A DNA stretch of 61,015 nt, filler included, from Hausera hauseri (lineage: Eukaryota): assembly GCA_046269625.1 (NCBI GenBank). It is 11 parts of 11 records of this genome, joined end to end, with 100 filler letters (N's around TTAATTAATTAA, not from the genome) between each part and the next. Parts side by side here need not be neighbours in the genome. Positions count along the whole stretch, not along the records: positions 32,102 to 38,092 come from JBJURY010157311.1; 10 more parts are not named here. The stretch is one strand, 5' to 3'. Numbering within the stretch: position 1 is the first letter of the stretch; each line of letters opens with the position of its first letter. Made by a program: the position numbers and the translations under genes. A model generated the notes under the pieces. It saw nothing but the letters and a program-made list of their open reading frames with translations. It searched no databases and had not been told where the DNA came from. Shown piece by piece: positions 2,304-51,203 of the stretch.

Positions 2304-2359
2304 CACAAAAGTTCTCAAGAATATGATTTTGTTAGAATTAGTTCCGAGGATTTTAGAAC

Positions 2360-4668: not shown

Positions 4669-4722
4669 ATTTGAATTTTATTGGGAATTCCTTCATCCAT
4701 TTTCCATAAAATACATGCCGAT

Positions 4723-22479: not shown

Positions 22480-25400
22480 TTAGACAGTAAATTTTGCAAG
22501 ATGTTTGAATAAATATTGTTGGCACATCTTTGTCAAAATGACAACTTATGTGTTGTATGGTGACATGGTGGGAAGACTCTCCCATTGACACGCTATTTTG
22601 TCCAGTGCGACCACACTTCAAGCACTACATCACCCCCTTGGCAGAAAAGAAACTGTGCAAGGTGGAAAGGAATGATAACGATAATAAGGATAAAAGGAAC
22701 AATGTTTGCCTTCTATTCGGTTTTGGTGTGAGTTAGACGTTGTGTGCCATCACAGAATTTTTCTTTGCTGTAGGTTCTAAATGTCACTCTACGCGCCTTA
22801 CATGATTGGTTTGTGCTTGGTTGTAGTTCGACGTTATGTGATATAGGTGACGAGGAGAATATGTCAAGCAAAGGAGGCAATACAATTGAAGGCGATGAAA
22901 CATTGGGTAAAGGCAAAGAAGGCGAAGAAAGTAGTGAGCATGATGACGGAGAGAGAGGCGAGAAGAATGGAGGAAATGATGATTGAGCGTGGTCGAACAG
23001 TGATCGCTGAAACGGCAAAAAGTCGTTTAAAAAATCGGTAAGAGTAGGAGTTGAGTTTGAATTGGTGGTAGAATTGGTATTAGGGTTGTCATCAATGAAG
23101 AAAGCAGGCTTCAGATTCGAAATGTGGACGTTGTATGGTTTATCGTGGCATACAGTTGTAGCTGTAGGAGATGAAAGATTCAACAGTTTATACAGGTCGA
23201 CATATTGAGGTCTAAAACCTAAAGGCGATTGATCCTTCAACCATACAAACTTGGTGGAGTATAAATCCTTCGGAATATGGGATTTGTTGTTGTTAAAAAG
23301 GTGACAGAATGAATCTGAGCTGACCTCGATGAAGTGAAATTGTGCCGCACGAATGTTTTCGTCTGTAGGGTTGTCGTAGAGATCAGATATCTCAAATAAG
23401 GCCCGAATTGGAGTCCCAAAGAGTATTTTGGCGGGAGAACAACCGGTAGTGGTAGAGGGTGTGTTGTGCCAACCTAGTAGAACAAATGGTAGAATAGTCG
23501 CTCAATTACGATGAGTGTCAGACAAGTTTTTTAGAAAAAATTTCATTGTCCGATGGAACCTTTCAAGAAGGACATTTGCTTAAGAATGATATGGTGTAGT
23601 ATAAAAATGGGATATTCTCAAGCGTTTGACAAGTAACTTGAAAAGTTGTGACTCAAATTATGGACCTTGATCCGTTATTATGTAACGTGGGGAACCAAAG
23701 CGACTATTCCAGATTTTAATAAAGCCATCGGTTACTGAATCAGTGTTTGTTGAACGAAGAGGAACTGCTTCAGGCCAACGAGAAGCACGATCCATCATAG
23801 TAAGTATATGTTGATATCCGTTGTCAGCAGGTAAAGGACCAACTAGATCGAAATCAACTGTATGAAAGCGTGATGTACAGGAAAAGTGGTAAAGTGATGG
23901 TTTAAGGTGTTTGTTGATTTTGTATTTCTGACAGGCTGTGCATTCTTTAACCCAGTTCTGTACATCTTTGCGCATTGATGGCCAAACTATATGACGTTGA
24001 AGCAAGCGAAAGGTAGCTTTTAACCTGGATGATGGAGTGATTGAGTATGAACGAAAGCTGGCTTTTGTAAAGGTAGTGCTAGAATGATCTTTTTATTACC
24101 GGTATTTGACGTATCATAAGCAATGCCATCGACTATCTTGAAAGATTTGAAGGAACTAAGGACAACAGCAGACAGTAGATTTGCCTTTAACACTTTGGAT
24201 GAGAAAATCGGCTCAACTGTGATGGAGCCAACCGACCTCGATAGAAAATCTGCTACCAGATTATCTGTGCCTGAGATGTATTCCAAAACAAAGCTGAACG
24301 TAGACAGGTACGATATATGTTGCTCTTTCCTCGATTATGTGCAGGAGAGGCTTGTGATCAGTTTGAATGACAAATGGACTAGAGATAAGTAGATGTTTGA
24401 AATGTTTTACTGCCAGAACTATGGAGGGTAACTCGCGGTCAAATGTTGAGTAACGGCTCTCGGGTTGTGTAAGCTTCCTAGAATAAAATTCTAATGGCTC
24501 GTCGACGCCATTAGAGATATGATGTAGTACAGCACCAGTAGCTGTGTTTGAGGCATCGGTTGTAAGTATAAGATCTGGCTTGGGTTTCGGATAGGCCAGT
24601 ATTTCTAGTTTTAAGGTCTTCACGCAAGTGATCAAATTTGGTTACCAGATCAGGAGTCCAGTGGATCAACTGCCTCTTTTTTCCGGATAACAAATGTGCA
24701 ATAGGTGCTGTGAGCTCAGAACAATGAGGTACGTATTTGTGGATGAAGTGGAGTGTGCCTAAGAAGCTTTTCATGTCTGTGGTAGTCGTTGGTAAAGTTA
24801 TGTTCTTTAATTCTTGTAGTTGATCCGGTTTTTGAGAGCGGCCGTGAGGAGTGATGATGTGATCTAGGAAATTTACTCGTTTCTGAAAGAAATGACACTT
24901 GGCGAAGTTGACTTGCAAATTGTTATGATGTAATCTGTGAAAGATAATACGAAGGTGTTCTTGATGTTGTTTGACAGATGCTGAGGCAACTAATATGTCA
25001 TCAATATATGAATGAGCGAAGTCAAGTCATGAGAGTACGGTATCAATGTGTCGTTGGGAAGTTTGAGAAGCACGACGTAAACCAAATGGCATAAAGATAT
25101 ATTTGTAGAGGCCAAATGGAGTAATAATAACAGTTTTTGGAATATCATCAGGTGCAACAGGAATTTGATGATATGCTTTATGCAAGTCAATTGTGGAGTA
25201 GGTGTTAGTGCTAGTAAGGCTGTGCATGATGTCATTTATAAGAGGTAAAGGGTAAGCATCCAAGACTGTTAGATTATTTAAGTGACGATAGTCACCACAT
25301 GATCTGTACGTGCCATATTTCTTTGTCACTACATGCAATGATGAATCCCATGGTGATTTAAATCGTCGAATAATGCCCGCCTTTTCCAGTTCATTGAACT

Positions 25401-27330
25401 CTGATTCAACGTCTTTTTATCTGCGAGGTGACAGTGGTCTGACCTTTTGTCTGATAGGTCTTTGGAGTTCGGTAATTATGTGATGATAAGTTGTAGAATG
25501 CGGCTTGAAATTGATGTCCTTCTTGAGAGGGTGGAAACAAGAAGTTTGATATAGGATTTAAGATCAGAACCCAACCATAAAAAAGACGAGGGCATATTAT
25601 TGGAAGAGTCAGTAGCTGTAGTTGATGTAGAATGACTTAACACTTCATAAACAACATTCGGTTCAGCCGATTGTTTAAAGATTGATTTGTTTCCACTTGA
25701 CGAGATTGAAAATATTGATGAATTATTAAGTGTATTGTTATTAGCCAATGAACAGCATAGAAAATTGACATTTGAATGAACAGAGGAAGACAAGATGTAC
25801 GACTGGTCGTCTAGTAAGCATTTTTTGCTATTTGCAACGGAGTTCCTGCGCAAGAGATATCTATTCTTATAGTCCACTAACAAATCGTATGCAGCTGGGA
25901 AATCGGAACCTATTATGGTCGATCTAATACTGGCTATATGAAATTTCCAGGAGAATTTCCCTGGTAGGTTGGAGAATGCGAAAGTCATTTTTGTGGTACC
26001 TACAATGTTTAAAGGTTGACCACAGGCAGTGAAAAGTGGAGGAGAGAAAACTGTGTTGTATGTACGAGCGAAAGACAAACGAAGAAGTGAAAAGACAGCT
26101 CCTGAATCAATGAGGAAGTCTATGTGTGAGGTGTCTCCAAATAACATTTCAGCCTTCAACAGAAAGACTGCAGAGGCGGTGTCGAAACGGCCAGTAGTTT
26201 GAACTATATTGCCTGTACCAGAATGTCCCGTGGCATCTGGTGGTGTTATTGGTTTTTTGAGACTTGTTGGTAGAAAGAGTAGAAATGGTGAGTGCGAGGA
26301 GGTAAAGAAGATGGAGAGAAACTAGAATTCTTTTTATAATGTTTACATCCTGACACGCATGACCTTGCCTTGGATTGATACTTTGTGATAAATGCAGATA
26401 GGGTTGTCTACTGCATAAGGTTCGTCGTAAAATCAACAGCCTAAAACACATTTCCTTGCGTCTCTGTGGAATTTATTGTGATAAAAACACGTCATTCTAC
26501 CATCTCTAGATTTCGACAGAGAAGAGTGCCTTGAAAAACTACGATTGCGCGAATTACGGTTTTCGCTTCCTCGAGGCTCGTATGTCACTGAGTTTGTTTG
26601 TGATCGCAAAAATTGCCTGTTGTAGTGTGTCGAATTGCTTCTGCATTATAATGCAATTGTTGTGCAAACAAAGTGTTGTCTGTGTGTGATGGTATGTGAG
26701 CGGTTGCTGCAGCTACTGGCTGTGAATTATTAGACTGCAAAATATCAAAACTTTTGTCTGCCAACAAGGCGAGTTTTTCAAGGGCAGTAGAGTCGTCTAC
26801 TACAGTAAGCAGAACTCGGATGGAGGTTGCCAAGACGAAAAAAAATACCGATGAAGAAGATCGGCGTTGTTTGTGGGAGTGACGCCCAAGGAGCTCAATT
26901 GCGAGATTGCAGTTTTAAGGAAATTCGATGGTTTTTGATTTCCAATGGCGTGTTTAGTAAAGTATTTCTGAATTATGCTGTCAATGGAAGGGTCGGTGAT
27001 ATGCAGAACTGATTCATACAGCATATCATACGGATTTTAAGAAGTATGTATGTCAGAAAGATTGTTGATTTACTGCTTGATGTTAGCTGGAAGTAATAGC
27101 AGCAAACTGTTCGCCCTCAAAAAGGACTCTGTAATAGGATTGGCTTTAAGTCTTTGCAAGTGGAACTGCAACCAGCTACTACTAGAATTCATCTTGTCTA
27201 GAAAAGAATCCGTGCAGGGGAGATTTGGAGATGTAGTTGGTATGGGGTCGATAGGACGACCAGATCTGGTTTGGTTAAGTTTTCGGCAGAAGGGTCAGGG
27301 TTCGATCTACCCCGTAAACGAAAGTGGATC
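22480..27330 (-). mobile_element. Near full-length decayed Ty3/gypsy element (gag-PR-RT-RH-IN, PPT, 3' LTR start)
   Basis: Gag IGNQKPSNFL and LEKLALLADKSFDI; protease FLIDSGA (~26110); RT CGDYRHLN, MPFGLR, YIDDILV; RH TTDASNTA; IN HHPG..CTAC, MMDRASRWPEA, ITDQG; PPT AAGGGGGTGA followed by TGTAG at 22629. Distal LTR boundary is approximate. Confidence 0.93.
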
Positions 27331-27929
27331 ATGAGACAGATGTCTGGACGTTCGTGGCATGCAAAAGACAAGAGTGAGTCTGAAGGATGTACTATAAGCC
27401 CTTGATGTGTGAAATAAAAATTATAGATGCTATATGATGAAGACACAACGTTATATAAGAACTGTGCTGTTTCGTTGTGTGGAACTTGTAAGGTGGTAAT
27501 GTGTTGGTTGTAGCTAAAGACAAGGAAAGATAATTGTAATGATGTCATCCAAAAGGCGCGATGAAATGCACGGGGGGCTTGGTCGGTTACCTTTTGGATT
27601 AAGAAGCTGGAAACTTTATATTGTAATGATATAATAAATTGCATAATCCTCCTTTTAAACAAATAGTTAGTCCTACCCCAAACTCATTCCCCAGCATAAA
27701 CTTTATTATCTTCCTCCTGGGCCCATTTAATCTCACTTTTGATATACACACATCTTTATTCTTCATTGAAAGANNNNNNNNNNNNNNNNNNNNNNNNNNN
27801 NNNNNNNNNNNNNNNNNTTAATTAATTAANNNNNNNNNNNNNNNNNNNNNNNNNNNNNNNNNNNNNNNNNNNNTTTATTTTTCTTCTTGACTACTTTTAG
27901 AGCAATAGTGTGATAACGATAAATAACGT

Positions 27930-32000: not shown

Positions 32001-35000
32001 TNNNNNNNNNNNNNNNNNNNNNNNNNNNNNNNNNNNNNNNNNNNNTTAATTAATTAANNNNNNNNNNNNNNNNNNNNNNNNNNNNNNNNNNNNNNNNNNN
32101 NTTCCAATGTAATTCACTTTCTATTTTACATAATTTATGTACTGGCCCCTTGTGTGTTTCCCCGTTCAATTTTATCTCCACCACCTTTACAACGTTGTCT
32201 ATCCCAGGGAATACCTTCGTTATTTCTGCCGCTGGCCAATGATTTAACTTTTTATTTTTCTCCAGCAACCATACTTTGTCTCCGATTTTTAGATCTATCT
32301 TTTCTCTTTTTATCCACTCATAACTTCGCCATTCGGATAGGAGTTCACTTATCCATCGATCCCAATATTTGCTGACTAACCTCTGTATAAATCTCCACCT
32401 ATCGGACAAGCTGCTACTGTTTGTTCCGGTTATCTCCCAAGAGATCTCCTCATTGTGTCAGGCTATAATAAAGTGGTTTGGAGATAAAATGACATTATTT
32501 TTACTATCATCGACAACTCTTATTAGAGGCCGGCTATTCGTAATTCCTTCAATCTCTATCAGTAATGTTCCTAATTCTTCATCGGTCAGTGAATTTTCCG
32601 GAAGCAATTTGTTCAACGAACTTTTTACAGACTTGACCATTACTTCATATACCCCTCTGAAGAGATGGCTCGCAGGGGGATTAAATATTCACCTTATTTC
32701 GGTGTCCTTGAGCGCTCTCCTGAGACTATTTGTGCCGATCTTAAATTTGTACACCTCTCTGTTAACTCCAATAAATGTTCCCCCGTTGTCGGAGACTATC
32801 AACGAAGGTCTTCCGCTTCGACTTATAAAACGTTTGAGTGCTTTTAAAAATGAATTAGTGTCCAACCCCGCCAACACTTCGATGTGTACTCGACGACAAA
32901 GTAAACATGTGATTAGACATATGTACCTTTTTTCATGTGCTAACCCTTGTCTTTGTCGAGTTTTCACTGTCCTGCGAAGTCAATCCCGACTTTATCAAAA
33001 GCTTTTTGCGGTAATTGTGTCCTAAACGTCGGTAACAACTCCTCTATCGCTCGTATTCCCTTTGCATTTGCCCTCCTACAAATCCTACAATAGTTCTGAT
33101 AGGCTTTAACTAACTTCTTCATCTTGGGAAATCAATACCTACTGCTTAACTCCGCAACTTGGTGGTTGACTCCCGCGGCGTGCCGTAAACTCAGATATGT
33201 ATCCTCGATGATTAGCTTCATTACGATACTCTTTGAAGACAGTATTATTGGATACTTTTGTTCCCAATTCAACCAAGATGTTGTTATTAGGCGATTATTT
33301 GATCTCAGTACTCCTTCATCGTCTAAAACGGGGTTAGATTTTGCAATAGAACTCCTGAGGCTAATATCCTCCTCGGATCGTAAATTCTCTATTTCTGTAT
33401 GGAATTCCTTCCCTTGGTCCTCCTTTATTATTTCCAATTTTGCCTTTCTTCTTAGTTCTGTCTTACGTAGATCACTATTTTCCTCCTTCTTTATGATTTC
33501 CTCAATCTTAAGCCTAATTGTTCCTTTCCAACGAGATTCTACACATTGTTCGGTGTCACCCACATTATCCTGTCTTCGGTGTTCTTTTTCCGATGAATTA
33601 TTTTTTAACGACATCAATGTGATTTCATCTTTCCTCCTTTCCTCATCCTTCGGCTTTGTTAATTCTCTGGGTTGGGAACGCCATTGATCTTCCGCCTTCC
33701 TAAGAAACTCTGGGCCATTCCACCACTCCCTTTTGTTTTGTAACTCATCAACATCTAATCCCCTAGAAAGGTAGTCCACATGGTTATGTTCTGTGTTTAC
33801 ATAGTTCCATTGTTTTCCGGTCGTTTCCTCTTGGATAAATCCAACTCTGTTCGCGACGATCGTTTTGTAATACTTGTTGCAGCCTTTTATCCAATCCAAT
33901 ACGTTCATGCTGTCCATCCAGTAATGTATATCTTCCTTCTTGTTGTCCAATGTCTTTCTTACTTTTCTCCCCAGCTTAACCTTATACAAGCTGCCATCAG
34001 TTCCAGTCTTGGTATGGCGACAGATTTTACCGGTGTCACCTTACCTTTTGAGCATACGATCACTACTTTAACTTTTTCTTCTACTATCGACCTTAAATAA
34101 GCAACCGCTCCATAATCCCATCTCGAGGCGTCGCAGAAAATGTGTATTTTACTATTATCACCTTCTTGGAAGTATAAATATCTTGGCACCGTTATTGTAC
34201 TCAAGTTCTTAATCCCTTTCAGCCATGTCCTCATTTTTTCTCTCAATTCCTCGGGAATTTTTTCGTCCCAATACACATTCATAATCCACAGTTGCTGCAA
34301 AAACATTTTCCCCAACAGTTTATAACAACTGAAGAAGCCTAGCGGATCGAATACTTTCGCTAATGTGCTTAATAATGTTCTTTTAGTTACATCTGACTCT
34401 TGCTTATTACGATTTTCAAATTCGAATATATCCTCTTTGATATTCCACTTCATTCCCAACGTTTGGTAACAGCGTCAACATTTTCTAATATGTTAAATTC
34501 CTTAGCTCGGTCATTGATAAGGATTATGTTCGTTAATTCACTAGAATTTGACACCCATTTGTGAGGTTTCATCCCAGCACTTTCCCATATCTCACTTAAT
34601 TTATAGTACAGCGAAACAGCTTCTTTTTCAGTGCCAACTGATTCAATACAATCATCCATGTATGTAAAATTTCCTATTGTTTCCACGGCTCTGGGGACAT
34701 TTCCTTTGAATTTCTCGGCATTGTGTCTTGATATCAGTTGCGCCAAAAACGGATAGGAGTTCAACCCAAATACCAAACGATTAAACTCATACGTTTTGAG
34801 CTTCCCATCCTTGTACCAAAGAAATCTCAAGTATTTCTTATCCTGTTGTTTCACCTTAATTTGCAGGAACATTTCCTGGATGTCGCATATGACCACCCAC
34901 GGCCATTTTCTCATCCTTAACATAATGTCCACAATATCCAGTTGTAACTTCAGGACGGGATCTAGGAAATCGTTCAGGCACTTTCCTCGATATTTTGAAG

Positions 35001-36177
35001 AACCATCGAAAACTGTCCTACATTTTGTGGTGTCTCTATCGGCCTTCGTAACTGGGAATTGCGGTAACAACCAAGCTATATCCGGTTTTTCCTGCTCCTC
35101 CACTAATCGAATGCACCCTTCTTTGCTGTGTGCTTCTATCACTTTTTCATACGCTGCTTTTGCCGTCTCATCCTTGTCCAGCTTTCTCTTTAAGGTTTCC
35201 AACCTTTTATGTGCTATCCGTTTGTTGCATTCCATTTCAGGTTGTATCCTTCCCTTCAATGGCAACGGCACACAGTATCTATTCACCTCGTAAGTTGTTT
35301 CATCCAATATATTCTTTACTGTTTCCTTGTCTTGTTCAGACCTCTCAGACTCTTCCACGTCCATATTAAACTCAATCTCCTATAATCGACTCAAGTCGTT
35401 TTGAATTTCTTCTGCCCTTGTCCAGAAAGCTCTCACAAAATTGCTATTTATAATTTTCTTTCCCTTTTTTATTTGCCTTACACAGGTCCAACCTAACGGG
35501 GTTAATCGCGCCACCGGTGCATACCTTTTACCGCATACCTATTTGATTGACCTGTGTAATTCTATAAAATTCGCCCCTATGATCCCATTCACTTCCGACC
35601 TGGATGACATTTCGGGGAACTTTAAATCCTTTAAGAGTGGCCATTTCTGTCTTTGTATGAACCAATTTACTGCCCTCATTCGCCCCGTTGAATTTCTCAT
35701 AGCCAACGTTTTGAAATTTACTTCTATTGACTGTTCCATATTTAGTAACATCATTTTAACTCTATTGATAAACATCTTGGTTTATTTTCCTCCGAGAACT
35801 GCTATCGTCAGCTTTTCTGTCTTCTTACTAACACCCAATTCTTCACACAGTTTTAAATCTACGAAAATCTCGGTGTTGGCATCGTCCAAAAACATTATTG
35901 CCTTTTTCATTCTATCCCCATTTTTTAACCACACTTCTATTGTCCTTAACGTTACCATCTCTTCTTCTTTGTTTCCCTCTTGAGAGCCTTGTGTCACATA
36001 TGCTCTAACACCTTTTTTCTCATTCGATGTCTCTTTTCCTTTTTCATATTCTGTCGTCCATGGCAGTGAATCTTCTGCTGTCCTACGTGTTATGTTTTCC
36101 TGAGAACTTTCAATTTTTCTCCCTACTTCCTTTTCTTCGCAATTGTTTTTGACATTTTTCATGTTATCCATTTCCCC

Positions 36178-36324
36178 ATGTAGAAACCTACAATTATTCC
36201 TATACTTACATTTCCCTTTTTCAAGGTACCAACATAACCTTCTTTGATCATCCTTGCTAGATTGATGTAGGTATTTACAATTCTTTCCGAATTTGCACCA
36301 TCCGTTCTTATCAAAATTCCAGCA
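36178..36324 (-). other. Tandem CCCH zinc fingers in BEL/Pao Gag
   Basis: CWNFDKNGWCKFGKNCKYLH (C-x8-C-x5-C-x3-H) and CWYLEKGKCKYRNNCRFLH (C-x7-C-x5-C-x3-H). Confidence 0.9.
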
Positions 36325-37431
36325 TCTCTGGAACTGATCTTCTCGCTGTATGTTGTGGTGGCTAGATTGTACCTCCCTTTTAACTTCTCGATCTCTTATT
36401 TTGGAATCCATGTTCTCGATATCTCTATTAACAACCCGTGATCTTTTCGTAAAATACAATATTCCATCTCCTATTAGTGTGCATCGACCATCTTGACTTG
36501 GTTTGAAGGCTTCGATTTCTCTCATTCTCTCTATGATATTTCTCCTAACCATCGCTTCTATCTCGATCCAATTTTTCAATTCCATGACTGTTCTATCCGA
36601 CTTTTTCTTGATCACATGCCCTTCCAATAGAAGCACAATTCATTCAGGAAGATTTTCAACGAGGCTTTGGTACAATAGCCCTCCACTAAGTTCTCCCGTT
36701 CTCCCTAGATTCCTCAATCTTACAATTATTCCTTCTAACAACGCCACAAACTCATCTAGCCCTTTAATATCTTCCTTCTCTATCACCCGAAATCTTATGA
36801 CTTCGGTCATAAACGCTGCATAATAACGTTGTTCACCTCCATAATAGGAATCCAATGTCTCCAGTGACGCCCTAGATACTTCTTCTGATAGGTCGAAATT
36901 TCCAATCAGCCTTTTCGGCTCACCTTACAAGCACTGGTTCAGCTGCAGTTGTTTATATATTTTCGACATTGGGGTTTTGTGGATAAAAGTGTCAAAAGTC
37001 CTTTTCCATTTATCGTATTTGGTAATTAGCCCACCAAACTTCGGCAACTCTAATTTTTGTAACTTTGGTAATATTACTATTTTCGTTTTCTCCTTTTCAG
37101 GCCTTCCATTGGCGATCATCATCTTATTTTCTCTTGAGCTCCTCTCATAGATGATTGCGTTGATTTTTTTGTTCTGATCGTCTAGTTTCTCCATATCATT
37201 TTCTAACAATGTGAGGTTCTCCTTTTTTCTCAACTTTCTCGCCGTGGTGGCTAGTATACTCAACTCCCTTTGAAGATCGGTAAACGATTTATCATACTTC
37301 TCATGATATATTTCGTATTCATGATCATTCAAGTTCACATCCATCAACTTCCTTCGAATAGCTGAAAGATCGTTGATGTATTTACGTCGCTCAGATATCC
37401 TACCTTACAGTTCGTCTGCAATTATTTTACT

Positions 37432-37659
37432 CCCACCTTTTAACCGTAACTGCAAATGAACAGTCGAATCCTTTTGAATATAATATTCGCTAAGTTTCCG
37501 AAAATCCTTTAGTTCTTTCCCAATGCAAATTAATTGTTGTTGGTATGTTGGAATCCCCTCCCTTTTCTCGACAATCAACTTTAGTTCCTCCACTTTATCC
37601 GACATTTTTACTAATATCGCCATTATTTTTCCCGAAATTGTCTCAAGAAATATCGTTCA
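37432..37659 (-). pseudogene. Ubiquitin-like domain in frame with BEL/Pao Gag
   Basis: [75 protein letters not shown] aligns without gaps to 76-aa ubiquitin; 38/76 identities by hand count. Confidence 0.93.
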
Positions 37660-37726
37660 TTTCCCTTCTTTAATTTTTGTTGTGTCTTCTTGCTCTAATT
37701 CCTGAGTACTTCTCTTTAATCCTTCT

Positions 37727-38092
37727 TAGTAGTTGGAAGGGAGGACTTTGCGCCAACACCCCTCCTTCCGCAGGGAAGGAAGGAAGCCAATAGGAGGAGA
37801 ACACGTCATCGAGGGAAGGAAAACTGGCCAATGGGAGTCGAGGAAAACTGACCAATGAGGAAGAAAGGTGGCGCCAAGTGGGTTTCACTATTCCCACCCC
37901 TAGAACAAAGCATTCTGGTGCAGAATGGGTTTCACTATTCCCACCCCTTATTTATTGGTCGGGTATAAATAAAGGCCTTGGAAATAGCATGGTATTGTGC
38001 GACAAATGGTATGATTTTAAATCTGTTTAATTAATTATATACTTAGGAAATAGAAATTAAACGTCTCACAAAGGAAATATGTAGTGGTAAAA
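37727..38092 (+). repeat. LTR-like, promoter-motif-rich repeat inserted antisense at the 5' end of the BEL/Pao ORF
   Basis: Three CCAAT boxes, ACGTCA, GCGCCAA twice, GGTTTCACTATTCCCACCCC twice (37881, 37928), TATAAATAAA at ~37964; homologous to 120-355. Confidence 0.65.
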
Positions 38093-38192: not shown

Positions 38193-41100
38193 CGTGATCC
38201 TGCTTGTTCTTCATACAGCACTTTTCATCACCCCTCGACCGCCAAACAAAACCCGGGGAAAAGGGAGGCGTTCGTTCCCAGACATGAGCATCGCGCGGGG
38301 AACAACAAACCCTTGATCTCGTATGGCAAGGGAACAAACCATGTTGGCACCACATCACCCTCCGTGGCTGAGTTAAAATCCATATATCGCGACAAAAGGA
38401 GAAGCAGAAGCGGAAAAGGTGAAAATATATTTAAAAGTGGTCTTTTCAAGGCGTAAAGTTCCCTGTTGGTATTTTACTCTGCAATATTTGTTGAATTTTA
38501 TGATTTTGCTTGCTTGTGTACGTGGTTTCTTTGTTTTCAACTGATTTTGGTGTAAAACCGATGTTAGTTTTGGGATTGTGTTGAGTGAAGGTCGAAGTGA
38601 AGAAGTAGAGGGTTTCAAAGGAGGATGAGATGAAGGATAATAGGGACTATAGTTTGAGAGAGGCGGAAGTTGCAAAGTGGAAATGAGAGGAGTAGAAGAT
38701 GGTTGGTTAAGAAGAAGGAAGATAGAAGACACCGGAGATGACGAAGATGTGGAAGGAGAAAGAGGGAGAGAGAGGGGACGCTGAATAAGGGCAAGACGGA
38801 AGAGAGTAAAAAGATGAAGAAGGTGAAGGAGAGGAGTTGGAAGGTGACATGCAAGAGGTTGGAATGATGAAAGGCGCATATGGAGAGATTGGTGAAGTAG
38901 AAGTGGTGATTACCGGAGAAAGTCTCATAGGTGAGAAAGCAGGTTGTCACCAGTGGATGCAGGAGGAGCTAAGAGGCTTGAAAGTGCAAAATGGGATGGG
39001 AAAAGAGGCGATGAACTGTCAAACAAAGTTGAAGTAGAAGGATTAAGAGAAAACGTAGGGAAAAGTGGATTAAAGGATTGAACAGAAATAGGGGGTAAAT
39101 TTTTGGATTGCTGCGCTTTGCGGAAAGATGTTGGTGGAGAAATGGTCACGATGGGGGATGTATCGTCAAGGAAGATGGCCGGATTAGCGTTGTTGATGTG
39201 GACTGTCACTTTTTGTCGTTCTTGAGGATGATGACGCTGTGGGAGTGTAAACAATTTACTTGGTAAGGGCAACCTACTGAGGTTGAAAACCACACGGCGT
39301 ATGATTCTTTAGCCATGCGAACTTTGCAGTATAAAATCGTCGGGTATGTAGGGTTTAGTGTCGTGTAAAAGTCTACAAAATGAGCCTTTGCTGATCGCAA
39401 CAAAGTGTCTCTGAGCCGCTTGTACGGTTTTGTCTGTAGAAATATTATCCAGCTTAGCCAGGTCGAATAATAGTCCGATAGAATTACCAAATAATGCTTC
39501 TGCAGGTGAACAGCCTGTAGAAGTAAATGGTGTGTTCCGCCAGCCAAGCAGAACGTATGGACGGAGTGTGGTCCAACTGGGATTGGCTCAGCAACGATTT
39601 CAAGAGACCTTTTTAATCGTTCGGTGGAAGCGTTCGAAAAGGCCATTTGATTGAGGATAATAGGTGACGTGTGAATGTGGTTAATTCCCAATCGATTGAC
39701 AAGAGCTTTAAAAAGGTTGGATTCAAATTGTAGACCTTGGTCCGAGATGATATGGCGAGGTGATCCAAACCTGTTGATCCAAGTGCGAATAAAAACGTCT
39801 GCGATTGTTTCTGTGTTGGTGCTCCGAAGCCGAACAGCCTCTGGCCATCGCGAGGCACGGTCCATCATAGTGAGGATGAACTGATGGCCGTTGTCTAAGG
39901 GTAGTGGTCCTACTAGGTCAATGTGAACATATTCAAAACGAGACGTTTAAGGAATATGATATAATGGTGGCTTTAAATGCTTAGTAGATTTGTATTTTTG
40001 GCATGCCACGCACTGCCTAGTCCATGCATGTACGTCAGAGCGCATCGTCGGCCATACTACTTAGCGTTGTAAGAATCGAAATGTGGCCTTGGCACCGGAT
40101 GGATGTTGTTGAATGCTTCTTTTCAAGCGATTCGGAAAGTATGATTTTAGTATTATTAGGTTTGGAGGTGTCAAAGGCCACATCGTCGATGGTTTTGCAC
40201 GATTTAAAAGATTTCAGGATTTCAGGAGGTGGCTGGTTTTGTTCAAGTCTAGATTGAAGGTGAGTTGGTGTAAAATAATTCGAGGTGACCGATCGGGACA
40301 AAAAGTCAGCTACTAAATTGTCGATTCCGTTTAAGTGCTTGCTTTCAAAATTGAATGTGGACAAATACGATATTTGCCTCTCCTGAAGTGGAGAAGGCGA
40401 TTTCTTGGTAAGAATTTGAAACAAGAGCTCGTGGTTCGTTTGTATTGTAAAGGTTTGCACGGTTAGCAGAGGCTTAAAGTGTTTTGCGGCAAGGACCATT
40501 GCAAGCAGCTCTCTGTCAAAGGTGAAATATCTTTGCTCTTGCGCCGTAAATTTTTGAGAAAAGAATTCTAATGGCCAATAGGAACTATTTTTGACTTGAT
40601 GGAGGACAGCAATTGCAGCTGTTGAGAATGCATGCGTGGTTAAGAAGAGTTCTGCATGGGAGTTGGGATAGGCCAGGATTTACACGGTTTTTAAATTATC
40701 TATGAGGTGATCAAAAGCGTTAAATTCTTGGCGGTCCATTGAATAGGCTCTTTTTCTTGCCAGAGCTTTGTGATGAAAATGGAGCGGTTAGAGTGGAACA
40801 GTATGGAATATACTTACGAATAAAGTGCAAGGTTCTGAGGAAAACAGGCATCTCTGTTGATGTACGTGGTAGCTGTATGTTTTTGAACTGTGTGATGCGC
40901 TCTGACTCAGGTGAATGTCCGGAGGAGCTAACAACATGTCTCAGGAAGTTGACCTTATGTTAAAAAAGGAGCATTTGGAGAAATTAATTTTCAAGTTGTT
41001 TTGGTGCAAGCACTGGAAAGTTAAACATAAGCGTTTGGGGTGTTGTTTCGAGGAAGTTGATGCAATTAGGATATCATCGATATAGGGATAAGCAAAGTCT

Positions 41101-42375
41101 AAGCCTGAAAGAACTGTATCAATATGCCTTTGGAAGGTCTGGGAAGCGTTACGGAGTCCAGAAGGCATTAAGGGGTATTCAAAAAGACCGAAAGGTGTAA
41201 TGACAACCGTTTTCGAAATGTCTGCTGGGGCCACCGGAATTTGGCGGTATGCTTTGTGCAAATCAATGCAGGAAAAGATCGTCGAACCATGAGGCCTGTG
41301 TAGAATATCGTTGATTAATGGTAGAGGGTATGAATCCATTGTTGTTATGGTGTTATGTTGGTGGTAATCATCGCATGGGCAAAAGATGCCATCTTTTTGG
41401 AACCACATTTAGTGGTGAATACCAGGGGATTTGGATCTTCTGATTATTCCTGATCTTTTCAGTTCGAGAAACTCAGCTTCCACTGCCCGTCTGCGTCGAG
41501 GCGACAGTGGGCGGAACTTTTGCCGAATTGGTCGTTGACGTGCAGTTACTATGTGATGGAAAGTGGATTGAGGTGGTACGCATGATTTGTCTTTCTGCAA
41601 CAGACGCGTGCAGGAAGACGAAATGTATTGTTGTAGATCAGAAGACAATGATAAGAATTTATCCGATGGTGTCGATGAATGGTAACTGGATGCAGTTGAG
41701 GTAGGAGTTGTATAAAAGGTGTTGTGACAAGGTGGTATCAGGTGCAAGATGTTCGTGTTGAAGATGGTGTTGGTAGCTGTACTATCAGTAATAGGTGACA
41801 CGCAGTTGACAATATCGTATTTGTTGCAGTAATAAAAATTTCTACATAATGATTGATTATAAAAGTAAGTTAAATCAAAAGTCGGTTACTTTGGTATTGA
41901 CTTGCTGTAAGCGATCGCCCGGGCGGTCACCGAAATGCTGCTAATTTGATTAAAATTTTTTCTGCTCTTTAAGGAACATCGTTTGCAGTCTAAAAATAAA
42001 TTATAGTAGGACAGAAATTTTAAACCCAATATAGGAGTGCGTACGTTGGCTGCTGTAAATTTCCAAGTGAATGTGTTGGGGAAATTTGGAACAGTGAAAG
42101 TTAATTTGGTAACACCAAAAGTTTGCAAATGTTTACCGGACGCAGTGAACAGTTGCTTTCTTGATGTAAAATTGTTTTGGATGTGCTGTGTTGGTGGTAA
42201 TAAAGAAATTGCTGCTCCGGCGTCTATGAAAAAATTAATATATTGTTTTGGTGGAGTGACGACTGTTTCTTTCAACGTGAATACAGCAAAGGAAATGTGT
42301 TGGCTATCTTTTTGTAGGTTGTTGCATTTGCTAGAACTTGCCGTGTGTCCTAGCGGCGAAATCAGTTTTTTGTAG
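38193..42375 (-). mobile_element. Ty3/gypsy element (PR-RT-RH-IN, PPT, partial 3' LTR), decayed
   Basis: FFIDAGA protease; YIDDILI RT; MMDRASRWPEA and ISDQG integrase; Ser/Pro/Leu-rich tail; GGAGGGTGA followed by TGTGG at 38354; closely related to 356-2303. Confidence 0.94.
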
Positions 42376-42389
42376 GTGGCGAGTTTATT

Positions 42390-43424
42390 AGGGAGAGTGA
42401 GGGACACTGCACCAAGTTTATTCTCCTACCTCGAGACCCCCCCCAGGATTGATAATCAATAATTTTATATGGGGAAAATAGGAAATCAATATTATTGATT
42501 GGTGCAGTCGTGGTTTTACTATTCCCACCCCCAAGGGAGTGGAGGACACTGCATCAAGCTTATTTTCCTATCTCGAAACCCCCGCAGGATCGATATTTTT
42601 ATATGGGGAAAATTAGGGAATTAATATTATTGATTGGTGGAATCGTGGTTTCACTACTCCCACCCCAAAAAAATTTTAAAATATCGATTTTTCGACAATT
42701 TTTCAAAAATTTTTTCAAAAGTGAATAATGTGCATTTTCGAATTTTGTATCTAATGGTATGAAAAGAAAATTTTTTTCGAAAAATTGTTTTTCGAACTCG
42801 AATATATTTTCACCAAGTTTTAGAATAATTTTAATTGAAAGTGCAGAAATTTTCAGTTTTCTAAGCTCTTTCGAATGGTATATGTCGCAAGTCTGTACGA
42901 CCTTTGGAACCGAATATACAACGATTCGAATATTTCGGAAAAATTTTTCAAAATGCGATATCTCCGCAACGAAAAATCATATTGAAGTGAGGTGAAGTTT
43001 ATCCGATAGAGAAAAAATTCTCTACCTTGGGCATAAACTATTCGAAAAATTTTTTTCGAACTCGATTTTTCTAATTACCGAGTTTTTGAATATTTTTGAG
43101 TCCTACATTAAAAATGTTCATTTTATTTATGTCTATTGAATGGTACAGGTCGCAAGTCAATACCGCTTATGGATTCGAATATATATCGATTCGAATATTT
43201 CGAAAAAATTTTTCAAAATGAAATATAACCGCAAAGAAAAATCATATTGACATGCAATCAAGTGGGTTAGATGCAGAAAAAAATTCTCTAGCGACCAGGC
43301 CTAAAAAGATCGAATTTCACTTTAAGAAAAATTCGATTTTCAGTGTTTAAAATATTCGAAATGCAATATCTCAGCCTCCAGAGGTCGTATCGACCTGCGA
43401 TCAAGTTTGCGGGAATCAGGAACA
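42390..43424. repeat. Composite tandem repeat, probable end of a non-autonomous DNA element
   Basis: Two ~135-145-nt units (42390-42533, 42534-42666), each ending GGTTTYACTAYTCCCACCCC, then two ~250-nt units (~42777-43024, ~43042-43290). Confidence 0.75.
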
Positions 43425-44016
43425 NNNNNNNNNNNNNNNNNNNNNNNNNNNNNNNNNNNNNNNNNNNNTTAATTAATTAANNNNNNNNNNNNNNNNNNNN
43501 NNNNNNNNNNNNNNNNNNNNNNNNAAAAAAATCGAAGTTTAGTGGACCACAAAGAGATATCACTTTTGAATTTTTAGGCCATTCATTTCATATTCTGTAC
43601 CAACTCCGATGCTTCGTAAATATGTCTTTTCGTATCAGCAATAAAATTCCAAACATTTTCGATAAGTGCCTTTGCAGTATATATATCGTTTGAATCTTCA
43701 ATCTTCACATTATTAAACCATAACATTGCTTCTTTAATTCTTTAATAATTCCAACAAAAACGTTAAATCCAAATGATAGAAAATAAACCATGTATTTCAA
43801 ATTAAAAATTACAAAATCTTTATCTACAGTCAATTTTTCAATATATACAACTATTAGCTATTGTTAAATCTTCTGCATTTCCTTTGACAGTGTTTGGATA
43901 TTTCAAAATATCTCAAAAGTCGTAGTAACATGTATTGCAAGGCGGAGAAATTTACAAAGATGCCCGAGAAATGCAAACAGCATAATTGGTTAAACACATT
44001 TCTAAAAAGAAACACG

Positions 44017-44302
44017 TTAAATTTGATTATCTGTAGAAACACGACGAGAGCGACAAAAACAATACATATTCTCTCGAAACATTGGCGACATTGCACAATA
44101 GACAAAAAAAGTTCATGGGATATGTTATGAGTATGACAAAATTACAGATATGATAAACATACGTCACCCATTGTACATAAGAATCCTCACTCAATATGAC
44201 CATCGACGTGTAGACCGTTACGACACATCCAGTGGGTATTTCTACGAATAAGAACACAACAAGTACGACGATTACCATCTTTGACATCGACGAAATATCC
44301 AA
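44017..44302 (-). pseudogene. TM6-TM7 of a sex-peptide/myoinhibitory-peptide receptor-like GPCR
   Basis: SKMVIVVLVVFLFVEIPTGCVVTVY and ICNFVILITYPMNFF/VYCAMSPMFRENM resemble the SPR-type VFLLVEIP and SYPINFAIYCGMSRQFRETF motifs; a 1-nt frameshift in a T7 run could be a sequencing error. Confidence 0.7.
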
Positions 44303-44334
44303 TATATTTACATAATAGTACTCTTCTGCCTGCT

Positions 44335-47300
44335 AGGAGGGAATATTGAAAAAGTATGAGATGACGTAAACATTTCAATTGCCGGATATTGACGAAAAGG
44401 AAATAACTGTTGTATCTTTTATATGGGGTACAATTCACCCCAAATTGGGAGATGAATGAGAGAAATTTAATGATTGACGACTCCTGTCTTCACTCGAACG
44501 AATTGTGTCCGCAACGTTTGACTTGAATGATGATCTGATATACGAATTGGGAGACAAATGAGAGAAATTTAATGATCGACGACTGCTGTATTCACTCGAC
44601 CGAATTGTGTCCACAACGTTTGAGATTGACGACCAGCAACTCCGGAGAGGGACTCGAGCGCGTCCACGGCCGCGGAACCACATCAACCCCCCTCATTGCA
44701 GATGAGAAACCATGTAACTGAAAAAGAATTATGAAGATAATACGGATGACAACAATGAATCGCAACAAGGAATAACGTTTGGTTCCTATTCAGTTTTAGT
44801 ACGGGTCAGGCGTTGTGTGCCATCAAAGAACTTTTCTCTGCTGTACGTATTGAATGTTACTCTGTGTGGATTACTCGATAGATTTGTGCTGGGCTGTTGA
44901 GCGATATTGTGTGATGGGGATGATAGCGATAATGAGTCAAACAAAAAGGGCGATGCAACTGGAGGTGATGTAAAGTCATTTAGAAAATCAGTAGGAGGGC
45001 TAGCGAAGTCTGAGTTGGAAGTAGATTTGGTATATGGAATGTCGTCAATGAAGAAAGCAGGATTCAGATTCGAAATGTGGACGTTGTAAGGTTTATCGTG
45101 GCGTAAAACGGTAGCTGTGAGACGAAAGATTCAGCAGTTTCTACGGGCCAACATATTGAGGTCTAAAACCTGAAGGCGACTGATCCTCCAACCATACAAA
45201 CTTGGCGGAGTATAAATCCTTCGGAATATAGGATTTGTTGTTGTTAAAAGGGCGACAGAATAAATCTGAGTTGACCTCGACAAAGTGAGATTGTGCTGCA
45301 CGAATGTTTTCATCTGTAGGGTTGTCGTCGAGATCAGAAAGCTCAAATGAGGCCCGAATTGGAGTCCCAAAGAGTGCTTCGGCTGGAGCTCAAGCGGTAG
45401 TGGTCGAAGGTGTGTTGGGCCACCCTAATAAAACAAAAGGTAGAATGGACGTCCAATTGCGATGAGCGTCAGCCAAGATTTTTGAAGAGACTTTCATTGT
45501 ACGATGAAACCTTTCAAAAAGGCCGTTTGCTTGAGGATGATATGGTATAGTATGAAAATGAAATATTCCCAAGCGTTTGACAAATGATTTGAATAGTTCC
45601 GACTCAAATTGTGGATCTTGATCCGTTATTATGTAACGTGGGGAACAAAAGCGACTGATCCCGATTTTAATAAAGGCGTCGGCTACTGAATCAGTGTTTG
45701 TCGAACGAAGAGAAACGGCTTCAGGCCAACGAGAAGCACGATCCATCATAGTAAGTGTGTGTTGATATCCGTTGTCGGCGGGTAAAAAAACAACTAAATC
45801 AAGATAAACTGTATGAAAGCGTGATGTACAGGGAAAGTGGGAAAGTGGTAGTTTAAGGTGTTTGTGGATTTTGTATTTTTGACAGGCTATGCATTCTTTA
45901 ACCCAGTCGTGTACATCTTTGCGCATTGATGGCCATACTACATGACGTTGAAGCAAACGAAATGTTGCTTTCGAACCTGGATGATGGAGTGAATGCGTAT
46001 GAACAAAAGCTGGCTTTTGTAAAGGTGGTGCTAGAATGATCTTTTTATTATCTGTATTCGACGTATCAAAAGCTATGCCATCAATGATCTCGAAGGATTT
46101 GAAAGAACTGAGAAAGTCAGCAGATGGTTGATTGGATTTTAAGACTTCAGATGAGATAATCGGCTCAACTGTAATGGATCCAACCGATCTCAATAAAAAA
46201 TCAGCTACCAAGTTATCTGTGCCTGAGATATCTTTCAAAGCAAAACTGAACGTAGACAGGTATGATATATGTCTCTCTTGCCTCGGTGATGGCTCTTTTA
46301 ACGACATGATGTGCAGCAGAGGCTTATGGTCAGTTAGAATGACAAATAGACGAGAGAGAAGTAAGTGTTTAAAGTGTTTTACTGCCAGAACTATGGCGAG
46401 TAACTCACAGTCAAATGTGAAGTAACGGCTGTCGGGTTGTGCAAGCATCCTAGAATAAAATTCTATTGGCTCGTCGACGCCATAAGAGATCTGGCATAGT
46501 ACAGAGCCAGTAGTTGTGGTTGAGACATAGGTTGTAAGAATAAGATCTGTCTTTGGTTTCGGATAAGCCAGTATTTCTACGGTTTTAAGACCTTCGCGCA
46601 AGTGATCAAACTTGGTAACTAAATCAGGAGTCCAGTAAATCAACTGCCGCTTTTTTTCGGATGACCAATGTGCAAAAGGTGCTGTCAGCTCAGAACAATG
46701 AGGTACGTATTTGTGGATAAAGTGGAGTGTGCCTAAGAAACTTCTTATATCCGTAGTAGTCGTTGGTAGAGTTATGTTCTTCAATTGTTGTAGTCGATCC
46801 GGTTGTGGAGAGTGGCCGTGAGGCGTGATGACGTGACCTAGGAACTTTACACGTTTTTGAAAGAAATGACATTTGGAGAAGTTAACTAGCAAATTGCTAT
46901 GATGTAATCCGTGAAATATAATACGAAGGTGTTCTTGATGTTGCTTGATGAACGTAGAGGCAACTAAAATGTCATCAATATATGGATGAGCGAAGTCTAG
47001 GCCTGACAGTACGGTATCAATGTGCCGTTAAAAATTTGAGAAGCACTACGTAAGCCAAATGGCATAAGGATATATTCGTAGAGGCCAAATGAAGTAATAA
47101 TAGCAGTTTTTGGAATATCATCAGGTGCAACAGGAATTTGATGATATGCTTTAAGCAAGTCAATTGTGGAGTAAGTATTAGTGTTGGTAAGGCTGTGTAG
47201 GATGTCATCTATGAGAGGTAAAGGGTAAGCATCCAAGACTGTTAGATTATTTAACTGACGATAGTCAACGCATGGTATGTATGTGCCGTCTTTCTTCGTC

Positions 47301-49300
47301 ACAACATGCAAAGGCAAAGCCCATGGTGATTTGGATCGTCGAATAATGCCCGAATTTTCAAGTTCATTGACCTCTGATTCAACAGCTTTTCGTCTGCGAG
47401 GTGAAAGTGGCCTTACCTTTTGTCTGATAGGTCTTTTGTGTTCGGTGACTATGTGGTGATATTTTGTAGAATGCGGCTGGAAATCGATGTCCTTCTTAAG
47501 AGTACGGGAACACGAAGTTTTAATCTAGGATTTAAGATCAGAACCCAACGATAAGAATGATGAAGGCATATTATTGAAAGAGTCAGTGGCTGTAATTGAT
47601 GTAGAATGACTGAATAATTCATTAACAATATTTGGTTCAGCCGATTGTTTCAAGATTAATTTGTTCTCACTTGACGAGATTGAAAATATTGCTGAATTGT
47701 TAAGTGTGTTGTTATCAGCCGATGAACAAGATGTCAAATTCATATTTAAATCAACAGAGTAAGACAAAGTGTCCGACTGGCCGTCTGATGAGCATTTGTT
47801 AAAATTTGCAACGATGTTTCTGCGCAGGAGGCATTTATGCTTGCAGTCTACTAACAAATCGTATGCAGCCAAGAAATCGGACCCTATTATGGGCAATCTG
47901 ATGTTGGCTATGTGAAATTTCCAGGAGAATTTCCCTGGTAGGTTGGAGAATGTGAAAGTCAGTTTTGTTGTACCTACAATGTTCAAAGGTTGACCACAGG
48001 CAGTGAAGAGTGGAGGAGAGAAAACTGGAGCGAAAGACAAAGGAAGAAGGGAAAAAGCAGCTCCTGAATCGATAAGGAAGTCTATTTGTGATGTGTTTCC
48101 AAATAACGTATTAACTTTCAGCAGAAAGACTGCAGAGGCTGTGTTGAAACGGCCAGACGATTGAACGATATTGCCTGTACCAGAATGTGCCGTGGCATCT
48201 GGTGGCATTACTGGTTTTTTGGACAATGTTGGGAAAACGAAGACGAATGATGAGTACGAGGAGGCGAAGAAGATGGAGGAAATTAAAATTCTTTTTATAA
48301 TGTGTACATCCTGGCACGCACGACCTAGCCTTGGATTGATGCTTATTGTGATAGACACAAATGGGGTTGTTCACAGCGTACCGTTTGCTGTAGATCCTAC
48401 AACCCAAAAAAACACTTCCCACCATCCCTTTGAAATCGCGTGTGATAAAACAGGTAATGCGTCCGCCAGGTGAAACGGATCGAGCAGAGTGTCTGGAAGT
48501 GCTTCTCTCCCTTAGAGGTTTGTTTTCGCTTCGTCGAGGCCTATTTAGATTATTTAGTTGAATAGTGATGGCTAGAATTGACTGCTGTAACTCGTCAAAC
48601 TGTCGCTGCATCAATTGTAATTGTTGTGAGAATGAAGTGTGGTCTGTGTGTGAAGGTGTATTAGCGATTGCTGCAGCTACTGGTTGTTGACTATTAGACT
48701 ACAAAATATCAAAACTTTTGCCTGCCAATAAAGCAAGCTTTTCGAGGGCCGTTGAGTCGTCTACTACCGTGAGCAGCGCTTTGATTGAGGTTGGCAAAGA
48801 TTAAAGGAAATACCGACAAAGAAGATCGGCATTGTTTGTAGGAGTTACGCCTAAAGAGCTCAGTTGAGAGATTGCAGTTTTCAGGAAATCTGATGGTTTT
48901 TGATTTCAGATGGCGTGTTCATTAAAGTATTTTTGAAATATGCTGTCAATGGAAGGGTCGGTGATATGCAGAAATGATTCATAAAGCATATCATATGGGC
49001 TTGAGGAACTAAGTATATCAGCAAGATTGTTGATTTACTGCTTGATGTTAGCTGGAAGTAATAGCAGCAAACTGTTTGCCTGCAAAACGGAGTCTGTGAT
49101 ATGATTGGCTTTAAGCCATTGCAAATGAAACTGCAACCAGGTATGACTAGAATTCATCTTGTCTAGAAAAAAATCCGTGCAGTGGAGATTTGGAGATGTA
49201 GTTGGTGTGGGGTCGATAGGACGACGGCCAGATCTAGTTTTGGTTAAGTTTTCGGCAGAAATGTCAAGATTTGATCAACCACGGATACAAAGATGAAGTG
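44335..49300 (-). mobile_element. Near full-length decayed Ty3/gypsy element, sister of 22480-27330, with 3' LTR from 44682
   Basis: Gag 49260-48300; FLIDSGA; RT CVDYRQLN and YIDDILV; 500-aa RH-IN ORF 45390-46892; PPT GAGGGGGGTTGA followed by TGTGG; LTR has two ~82-nt direct repeats (44440-44522, 44543-44624) and TATAAAAG. Confidence 0.94.
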
Positions 49301-49344
49301 AGGTGGATGATTTTGAAGAAAGATGCAGAAAGTTGATCATGGAT

Positions 49345-49651
49345 ATTGTTGGCTGCGAGCGCTCCACACCATCCACGTCATCGCCCAGCCGGGTTAGGGT
49401 TTTAAAATACCCTCCCTCTGGTATGTCTGCTGAATCAGAATTGGATTGTTTGAGATTACTCATTGAAAAGTAAACACCAGTAGAAATTTTTATTGTAATC
49501 CAAATTATTTATTTTGAAACAAATTTTCTAAATCCAAATCAGATTTGCAATATTACCTTAGAAATTTAATTAATTAATTTTAATTAAATTTTTCTAAATT
49601 ATTCCAAATTACAATCTTAATTTAAATTCTCTTATCAATTATATCCTCACA
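49345..49651 (-). repeat. LTR/PBS/ORF-start repeat (homolog of 29780-30090) interrupting the piggyBac 3' end
   Basis: TGTGAGGATATAAT starts exactly where the transposase sequence breaks off (VHPR|CEDII). Confidence 0.7.
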
Positions 49652-51203
49652 ACGTGGATGGACCAATCTTTCTTCAATGTAGGACTTTGAAAATTGAAAG
49701 GTCAAATGCAACAAAAACTGCTTCCTGTCACCAGAATAACCTCGCTTTCGCATTATTAAGAAAGCATTGTAACACGAAACATCTAGGATATTGTAGTGAA
49801 CAAGCATTAGCGATCGCACAGTTTTTCTGCGATATGTAAAGGTTTTGGTTCGGTTATAATCGGTGATGAGGACAGGCTTTCTTTGAATATCATCATTTAT
49901 TTCTAGACCAGAATGAGATGAGCTCAACATCATAAGATTTTTGTTTCTTTTGGGCAATTAAAAACAAACAACTATTTTCTTTTCATGCTCAAACAAGAAA
50001 TTTGGTGAAAATATTTTTCTGTCTTTAATAACTTTCAAGCTTTGAGGAATATCCCTCCTGTTAGTGTTTAAATTCCCAAGCAATGATAATTGTTTTTTGA
50101 GAAGCTCTGTGGCTAATGTATGTCATGAAAAATAACGATCAGTTACAATTTCTCTCCCCGATCCATGATACGGTTCTGTCAGTTACATTACAATATGAGT
50201 GCCTAAGTTTCTGTGCGGTTCCAAACGATTTCCTCTAGAGTAAATTAAAAAATTTAAAGTATAACCGGATGAAGATTTACAATTCCAAAAACTTTGAGCC
50301 CAAATTTTCTTGGTTTGCTTGGCATATAAGTTCTTCCTGGTATTCGTCCACGGTAGCCAAATAACTGTTCATCCACGGTTAGAAAAAAGTCAGAAACATA
50401 AAATCTTCTATGGTTTCCATTGAACAAGGATATTAAGTCCCTTACAGCTGCAAGTTTGTCATCTCTCTTATGTTATCATATCTCAAGGTTCTGAGGAAAA
50501 ATGTAAAGCGATTTTATGACATGCATATTCTGTAAAAGGGACGTGCATTGACAGAATCCCACAACAAACTCAAATCATTGAAGTTATCTCTATCACGTCC
50601 TGCACGCAACATGATTGCAATACCAGCAAGGTATGCATCATAAGGAAATTCACGATAAATATGCTTATTTGACACATTGGCAGGCAAATTTTGCCGAATT
50701 GCCTTAACTTTCAGATTTGAATAGCGGAGATTTGTCCGTACAATAAATTCAGAATAAATGATGTAGAATGATTCCATCTCATTGACAGGATTAGCCATGA
50801 CCTTGGGTTGTTCTGTGACAATGTTGCATTGCCTAAATCGATTTGAAAATGGTTGTTTGTTAAATGAAACACCAGTCCATGACATTTCAACATCGTTTCT
50901 AGGATCAGTGTTCAATCTTTCCCCAGTACCATCAACACGGTCATCATCTGAAATAGAAACATCCTCCTCACTGTCTTCAACTTCCACTTCAAGTTCACCT
51001 TCGCTTGTCTCTATTCCATCATCACATTCAGAACTGCTTTCATTCTCTAAAACATTGTCATTTGACATTTCATCTGCATCATCATCAGACATGTCAGTTG
51101 CAGTTTTATTATTACGGACGTGGACATTCTCGTCATCTTCGTCACCAAGTAAAATTTGACAGGCTTCCACAAATGCATTATGACTTTCTCTCATCATTTC
51201 CAA
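49652..51203 (-). mobile_element. piggyBac (PGBD-like) transposase pseudogene
   Basis: Acidic N-terminus; PFYRICMS*NRF; LTVDEQLFGYRGR, YMPSKPRKFGLK, IVTDRYFS, MMLSSSH, KPVLITDYNRTK, NILDVSCYNAF; the GGVD segment carrying the third catalytic Asp is missing. Confidence 0.92.

Follow-up and report, generated by a model that had tools for sequence, protein, structure and literature searches.

As their standard module for packaging and chaperoning RNA, retroviruses and LTR retrotransposons use the CCHC knuckle. In a BEL/Pao-like Gag from Hausera hauseri, two CCCH fingers stand in its place between capsid and protease, and the locus raises the question of whether they are an accident of a single copy or the trait of a lineage, where they came from and what they might do for the element. 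The window, that is, the whole stretch of 61,015 nucleotides that was analysed, consists of 11 separate pieces of 4-8 kb joined by N-linkers and is mostly made of repeats; because the pieces were joined from separate records, those adjoining the element provide no genomic context for it. Positions 32102-38092, read on the minus strand, are a degraded copy belonging to an LTR-retrotransposon lineage that derives from BEL/Pao. Pfam domains follow each other there in the order ubiquitin, DUF1759 capsid, zf-CCCH, reverse transcriptase (RT), Pao-type RNase H and pieces of an integrase (Table 1). Ubiquitin, capsid, fingers, protease and RT share a single frame broken by stops only, and frameshifts occur at the beginning of ubiquitin, where this copy has the start codon in another frame, and again beyond the RT end. 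The ubiquitin domain reaches 60.6 bits on PF00240 (cut-off 25.4) and has its C-terminal diglycine. The DUF1759 fragment of the window is 61/94 identical (65%) to the relative P0003, which itself scores 59 bits and, like the relative P0153, passes the cut-off for this domain. No long direct repeat representing an LTR pair is visible within the piece, which ends at the integrase C-terminus, and no tRNA genes were found in the whole window.

Table 1. Parts of the BEL/Pao-derived element, listed from its 5' end in window coordinates
Feature	Position	Strand	Evidence
Ubiquitin domain with diglycine end, directly before Gag in the Gag frame	37432..37656	-	PF00240 over 37408-37656, E 1.3e-16
Gag N-terminal helical region and capsid start	36928..37404	-	93/155 identical to P0003, 53/151 to P0153
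Capsid, DUF1759, fragment between two stops	36643..36924	-	21.3 bits, under cut-off 25.4; E 2.8e-4
Capsid end	36502..36639	-	25/45 identical to P0003
CCCH finger 1, C-x8-C-x5-C-x3-H	36265..36324	-	PF00642; ligands and two aromatic positions invariant in P0001, P0003 and P0009
CCCH finger 2, C-x7-C-x5-C-x3-H	36178..36234	-	PF18044, PF00642; ligands invariant in the three Gags
Aspartic protease, LDDA-type motif, stop inside	35542..35949	-	Relatives match PF13650
Reverse transcriptase, YMDD, frame shared with ubiquitin, Gag and fingers	34453..35379	-	RVT_1 30.5 bits, cut-off 29.6; E 3.7e-7
Pao-type RNase H (Peptidase_A17)	33962..34474	-	Pfam E 7.2e-42
Stretch between RNase H and integrase	33135..34040	-	112/276 identical to P0153
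Integrase, H2C2 zinc site and rve core	32102..33131	-	Integrase_H2C2 E 0.002, rve E 3.4e-4; broken by stops and frameshifts, both scores under cut-off on the fragments

Upstream of the ubiquitin domain, positions 37700-38092 are a very high-copy repeat (depth 67,000-114,000 in run X1) that is ~70% like window positions 110-361, and an Rfam search of 37600-38092 gave no match. Elsewhere in the window, the piece 4669-10298 holds, among broken frames, an open frame at 9581-10186 (minus strand) for a fusion glycoprotein of the Monjiviricetes (chuvirus) type (PF24664, E 4e-13), which may belong to an element with an envelope or be an endogenous piece of a virus. A frame of 990 aa encoding C2H2 fingers at 10399-13368 (minus strand) and a stretch at 57697-58891 (minus strand) that weakly matches protein-primed DNA polymerase B (PF03175, E 0.006, below cut-off) look like pieces of Polinton/Maverick or related DNA elements. 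The pieces 1-4568, 21763-27773, 38193-43424 and 43525-51430 are four related Gypsy-type elements, with two pairs ~84% identical. Within the BEL/Pao-derived element, the protease motif at 35875-35890 reads D-D-A/G or D-E-A/G, not D-S/T-G, in most sampled relatives. Such motifs are taken for inactivating changes in PMC554778; their constancy suggests a working variant of the protease. The motif was not found in the supplements of PMC3118150.

Both fingers lie in the open frame P0001 (35785-36639, minus strand), separated by a linker of 10 residues, and have the C-x7/8-C-x5-C-x3-H spacing of zf-CCCH domains. On the window Gag, PF00642 scores 34.8 bits against a gathering cut-off of 20.5 (E 1.5e-8) in two stretches, and PF25585 and PF18044 likewise exceed their cut-offs on the fingers. 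The two CCCH fingers that the initial annotation had noticed between capsid and protease are true zf-CCCH domains by Pfam, in frame with Gag-Pol, and its statement that 35782-36636 contains no CCHC knuckle is borne out by a motif scan of the whole window, where the strict form C-x2-C-x3/4-H-x4-C occurs in none of the six frames and the sole loose CCHC motif lies at 50602, in a different piece. When the six-frame translation was shuffled 300 times, a single CCCH motif arose at 0.077 per shuffle, at least two in 2/300 and a tandem pair in 0/300. In base composition the finger DNA matches the remainder of the element, consistent with an old event. An AlphaFold2 model of P0001 was too poor for a fold search (mean pLDDT 37.7).

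Relatives show that the fingers are not confined to the window. A phmmer search against 1.84 billion representatives returned 450 matches, and among the 150 of these that were listed three have likeness to a BEL capsid or protease: P0003 and P0009 each carry two CCCH fingers between capsid and protease without CCHC, and P0113 is a fragment of the ordinary CCHC type. P0003 agrees with the window in 60-65% of Gag residues and at 23/49 positions of the finger pair, and the linkers on both sides of the fingers have diverged past alignment between the two. All 8/8 zinc ligands and three aromatic positions are nevertheless invariant among the Gags of the window, P0003 and P0009. P0153, from the cluster of P0009, is a polyprotein of 1926 aa in one open frame with capsid, two CCCH fingers, protease, RT, RNase H and integrase, and no CCHC occurs in its nucleocapsid interval; its RT is identical to that of the window at 134/292 positions (46%), its second finger reads C-x7-C-x4-C-x3-H and its linker has 3 residues. 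The CCCH-bearing families found number three only (window, P0003 and P0153/P0009). A word-index search with P0001 among proteins of 500-2000 aa gave no match and, as it missed P0003 as well, was evidently insensitive. Locus scans of JGI metagenome contigs with profile A2 and with P0153, and of IMG/VR viral contigs with profile A2, returned no relative. Several BEL/Pao frames are fused to host domains, namely P0003 at ~700-1016 (CFAP58), P0160 (PF00225 and others) and P0165 (PF02176), which are probably misjoined gene models; the CFAP58 tail of P0003 was left out of the analysis.

Contigs from run X1 point in the same direction within their limits. To the piece, 8737 contigs aligned, at a depth of 178-290 over the finger region, 238-360 in the two bins towards the protease and 991 towards the capsid, and one contig, 84% identical with 53 differences over 334 bases, spans the capsid end through finger 1. 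No contig joint skipping the fingers was seen among the 15 examined of 53. X1 may be the window's own source, so its copies add no independent support. The shared layout in diverged families, together with the X1 coverage, makes the CCCH fingers a family trait. That they could be an insertion into this copy or a chimera of the assembly is suggested by the degraded state of the copy and by the joining of the window from separate pieces, but the fingers are in frame with Gag-Pol, the same position is occupied in P0003 and P0153, which come from other records, and the diverged X1 contig bridges capsid end and finger 1. This explanation, which deserves practically no credence, is refuted by the layout of P0003 and P0153 and by their clade with the window in the capsid tree. 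Neither is the pair unique to the window copy, since P0003 and P0153/P0009 carry it too, nor do siblings retain CCHC knuckles, these closest relatives having two CCCH fingers and no CCHC.

Outside these families, the nucleocapsid of BEL/Pao elements is of the CCHC kind. The triple Cys-His box is given as the hallmark of Pao/BEL Gag, Tas excepted, in PMC554778, and as a distinguishing feature of belpaoviruses in 10.64898/2026.03.22.711591. A search with P0153 found 663 full-length relatives, and in the best 120 of these CCHC-type knuckles lie between capsid and protease in every case (120/120); 115 show the triple-box pattern in full, and a triple-box profile gives 43-91 bits for the five others. 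CCCH fingers were found in none of these best 120, whose top score on a CCCH profile was 2.5 bits over whole proteins. Profile A2, searched among proteins of 1779-5000 aa, retrieved 10 proteins, all of the CCHC type, four of them additional relatives. The expectation that a BEL/Pao Gag normally carries a cluster of CCHC knuckles is thus confirmed in 120 of the best 120 of 663 relatives, and the HMM comparison of zf-CCCH with the knuckle that the initial annotation had proposed separates the two kinds, CCCH Gags matching the CCCH profile and their relatives the triple box.

The order of events was read from trees of RT (122 rows, with an IQ-TREE run on 39 consisting of 11 clade rows and every fourth other), RNase H, RH-IN and capsid (34, 30 and 29 rows), all of them midpoint-rooted, without a Gypsy or Copia outgroup and without named reference elements. 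Under this root, the window is nested among PF05380-bearing polyproteins in four trees. A Pfam ubiquitin domain is present in 6/120 (best 120 of 663 relatives), and all six join the window in one clade of 11 rows in the 122-row RT tree, supported at 100/99 in the 39-row IQ-TREE run and at 100/99 in the capsid tree. Ubiquitin or a diglycine tail stands directly before Gag in 10 of the 11 rows (seven whole domains and three tails or partial matches, the remaining row being incomplete), and CCHC is kept in nine. The window and P0153 pair in RT (87/83, a bootstrap that had yet to settle), RNase H (SH 90) and RH-IN (SH 93). In the Pol trees both are the longest branches, and long-branch attraction may account for part of the pairing seen there; they are not long in the capsid tree, which unites window, P0003 and P0153 in one clade at 100/100.

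Midpoint rooting, and this rooting only, gives CCHC as ancestral, ubiquitin as gained on the stem of the clade and CCCH as having replaced CCHC once and later. At the level of sequence, these comparisons establish that the ancestral triple Cys-His box was replaced in place and in frame by a non-homologous tandem zf-CCCH pair, and that this swap, on a branch within the ubiquitin-headed clade, has been inherited since. CCCH Gags are a small, old BEL/Pao branch. The swap of the nucleocapsid module claimed at the outset therefore stands at the level of the lineage, the next relatives of the CCCH Gags keeping the triple box; the RT phylogeny suggested for placing it gives P0153 as nearest kin and puts it inside the ubiquitin-headed clade, and the claim that it was the second acquisition, after ubiquitin, agrees with the nesting of the trees under the midpoint root only.

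Ubiquitin or a diglycine tail is fused before Gag in the window and in P0157-P0161, P0163, P0165 and P0171, with two ubiquitin units in P0159. P0153 has the ubiquitin tail motif only, its body going undetected by Pfam and by a ubiquitin profile, which also failed to detect the tails of P0003 and P0157. The diglycine at the Gag junction suggests that host deubiquitinases probably remove the head by cutting behind it.

The fingers would have reached Gag either by remodelling of the knuckles or from elsewhere. In-place origin by remodelling and duplication finds some footing in the spacing of the box itself, as the last Cys of knuckle 2 and knuckle 3 already give C-x5-C-x4-C-x3-H, as the second finger of P0153 has x4 between its second and third Cys, and as a loose CCCH pattern runs across knuckles 2 and 3 in a few relatives, among them P0167, P0247 and P0264. 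Profile scores, however, keep the two folds apart. On a CCCH profile of 855 cellular-type fingers, which was built from matches to the window's own protein and thus leans towards the window, though the independent Pfam model agrees, the fingers of the window (30 and 27 bits) and P0003 score 27-37 bits and those of P0153 28 and 12, whereas BEL boxes do not exceed 7.8 bits; CCCH Gags, in turn, do not exceed 3.1 bits on the BEL-box profile, against 43-91 for true boxes. The fingers moreover carry glycines and aromatic residues in the pattern typical of CCCH proteins of cells, and no intermediate was seen among the 124 relatives examined. Remodelling is accordingly highly improbable on these mutually low scores, and the module would have come from outside the BEL box.

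No donor stands out, and the initial annotation's view of the fingers as host-derived finds no clear backing among the matches listed. Among the listed matches, finger-pair scores are 162 for P0003 and 153 for P0046, followed by a makorin-like protein (P0103) and several multi-CCCH proteins at 113-123. P0046, a Logan record of 316 aa that is 46% identical to the finger pair over 59 columns, has two fingers behind an N-terminal part that is predicted to be helical, a Gag-like layout, and this best non-BEL match is possibly a retroelement Gag, perhaps of another superfamily with the same swap. Its ESM Atlas neighbours belong to CCCH, CCHC and Copia-Gag clusters, all under 0.9 and hence leads only, as are the matches of P0153 430-700, likewise under 0.9; an AlphaFold2 model of P0046 was too poor for a fold search (mean pLDDT 34.9). 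Exchange between retroelements and capture of a host mRNA are of roughly equal standing as sources of the fingers. P0046, as the closest non-BEL pair and Gag-like in layout, hints at a wider reading, tentative and rather doubtful at present, in which CCCH is a second working kind of nucleocapsid that has displaced CCHC repeatedly and passed between retroelement superfamilies. If true, a host-type RNA reader would give the ubiquitin-headed BEL/Pao lineage sequence-specific selection of its genome.

From their position and conservation, the CCCH fingers are probably the nucleocapsid of these elements, most likely binding element RNA for packaging. TTP- and CPSF30-type fingers hold one zinc each and stack aromatic residues on the bases of single-stranded RNA. 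By analogy, each finger would bind one zinc ion, and its basic and aromatic residues would grip single-stranded RNA; the window pair is basic, with 12 K/R against 4 D/E, and retains the aromatic residues that stack on bases in those fingers. The pair might then select or condense element RNA during capsid assembly, and the basic flanks may carry part of the role in primer annealing and chaperoning. The main competing explanation is that the knuckles were lost outright, basic residues package the RNA and the CCCH pair is an accessory module, which could bring RNA or Gag to RNA granules, affect RNA stability or compete with host CCCH restriction factors. Elements without knuckles lend it some weight: PMC554778 reports Tas of Ascaris to be without the triple box, and Atlas-virus (Belpaoviridae) capsids bind and package nucleic acid without zinc knuckles according to 10.64898/2026.03.22.711591, which means that the CCCH fingers need not be the RNA packager. 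In the window, the 184-residue capsid-to-protease interval has 38 K/R, but also 30 acidic residues, leaving it weakly basic outside the fingers. The fingers, moreover, occupy the exact nucleocapsid slot, the interval in CCCH Gags (121-189 aa) falls inside the 96-210 aa of CCHC relatives (n=117), and no examined relative is without both kinds of finger. The accessory explanation is unlikely on this balance, and RNA packaging by the CCCH pair is the preferred one.

The CCCH branch suggests that the RNA-packaging module of a retroelement can be replaced by an unrelated one. It amounts to a natural swap experiment, in which a lineage kept a full open Gag-Pol after an unrelated RNA-binding fold had taken the place of the knuckle, and it tells apart the nucleocapsid functions that depend on the knuckle fold and those for which a zinc-stabilised grip on RNA suffices. 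CCCH proteins such as ZAP are host restrictors of retroelements, which makes the same fold on the side of the element notable. Classification by motif can also miss BEL/Pao elements without the triple box.

In the literature covered, nothing was found on CCCH fingers in the Gag of BEL/Pao or other LTR elements, nor on ubiquitin-headed BEL/Pao elements, although subscription journals, Repbase Reports and GyDB lay mostly outside this scope and an earlier mention is possible. CCCH fingers in ORF1 of Ngaro find no mention in the passages covered of PMC3783388 and PMC6681497, and the CCCH mentions in PMC2864245, PMC10799480 and PMC9447858 are unrelated to Gag. Among known CCCH proteins, TTP/TIS11d, CPSF30/Yth1, MBNL1, makorin and Unkempt share the finger spacing and the glycine and aromatic signature, and the best sequence matches in the PDB are tandem fingers of the TTP type (E 5e-7 to 1e-5) and, by profile, CPSF4 (E 6e-8). 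The window pair nevertheless differs from TTP/TIS11, which has two C-x8 fingers and an 18-residue linker, in its shorter linker and its C-x7 second finger. Among retroelements, the finger of Troyka (C-x2-C-x8-10-H-x4-C, PMC12440569) is non-standard but, unlike that of the window, still CCHC, and Tas has no triple box, like the window, the passage concerned in PMC554778 naming no replacement. The ubiquitin-headed clade (P0157-P0161, P0163, P0165, P0171 and P0254) groups with the window in the RT and capsid trees, and all nine of its members, in contrast to the window, keep CCHC knuckles. With BEL/Pao elements at large (Pao, BEL, Sinbad, Suzu, Tas, Dan and Flow; PMC554778, PMC3118150), the element shares the order PR-RT-RH-IN and, in its domains, the DUF1759 capsid, aspartic protease, RT, Pao-type RNase H (PF05380) and integrase, and its RT shows 40-47% identity to the 20 BEL/Pao polyproteins that match it best. 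It departs from them in its ubiquitin head and in having two zf-CCCH fingers instead of the triple Cys-His box and, lacking this hallmark, is best filed as a BEL/Pao-derived variant rather than as a canonical member.
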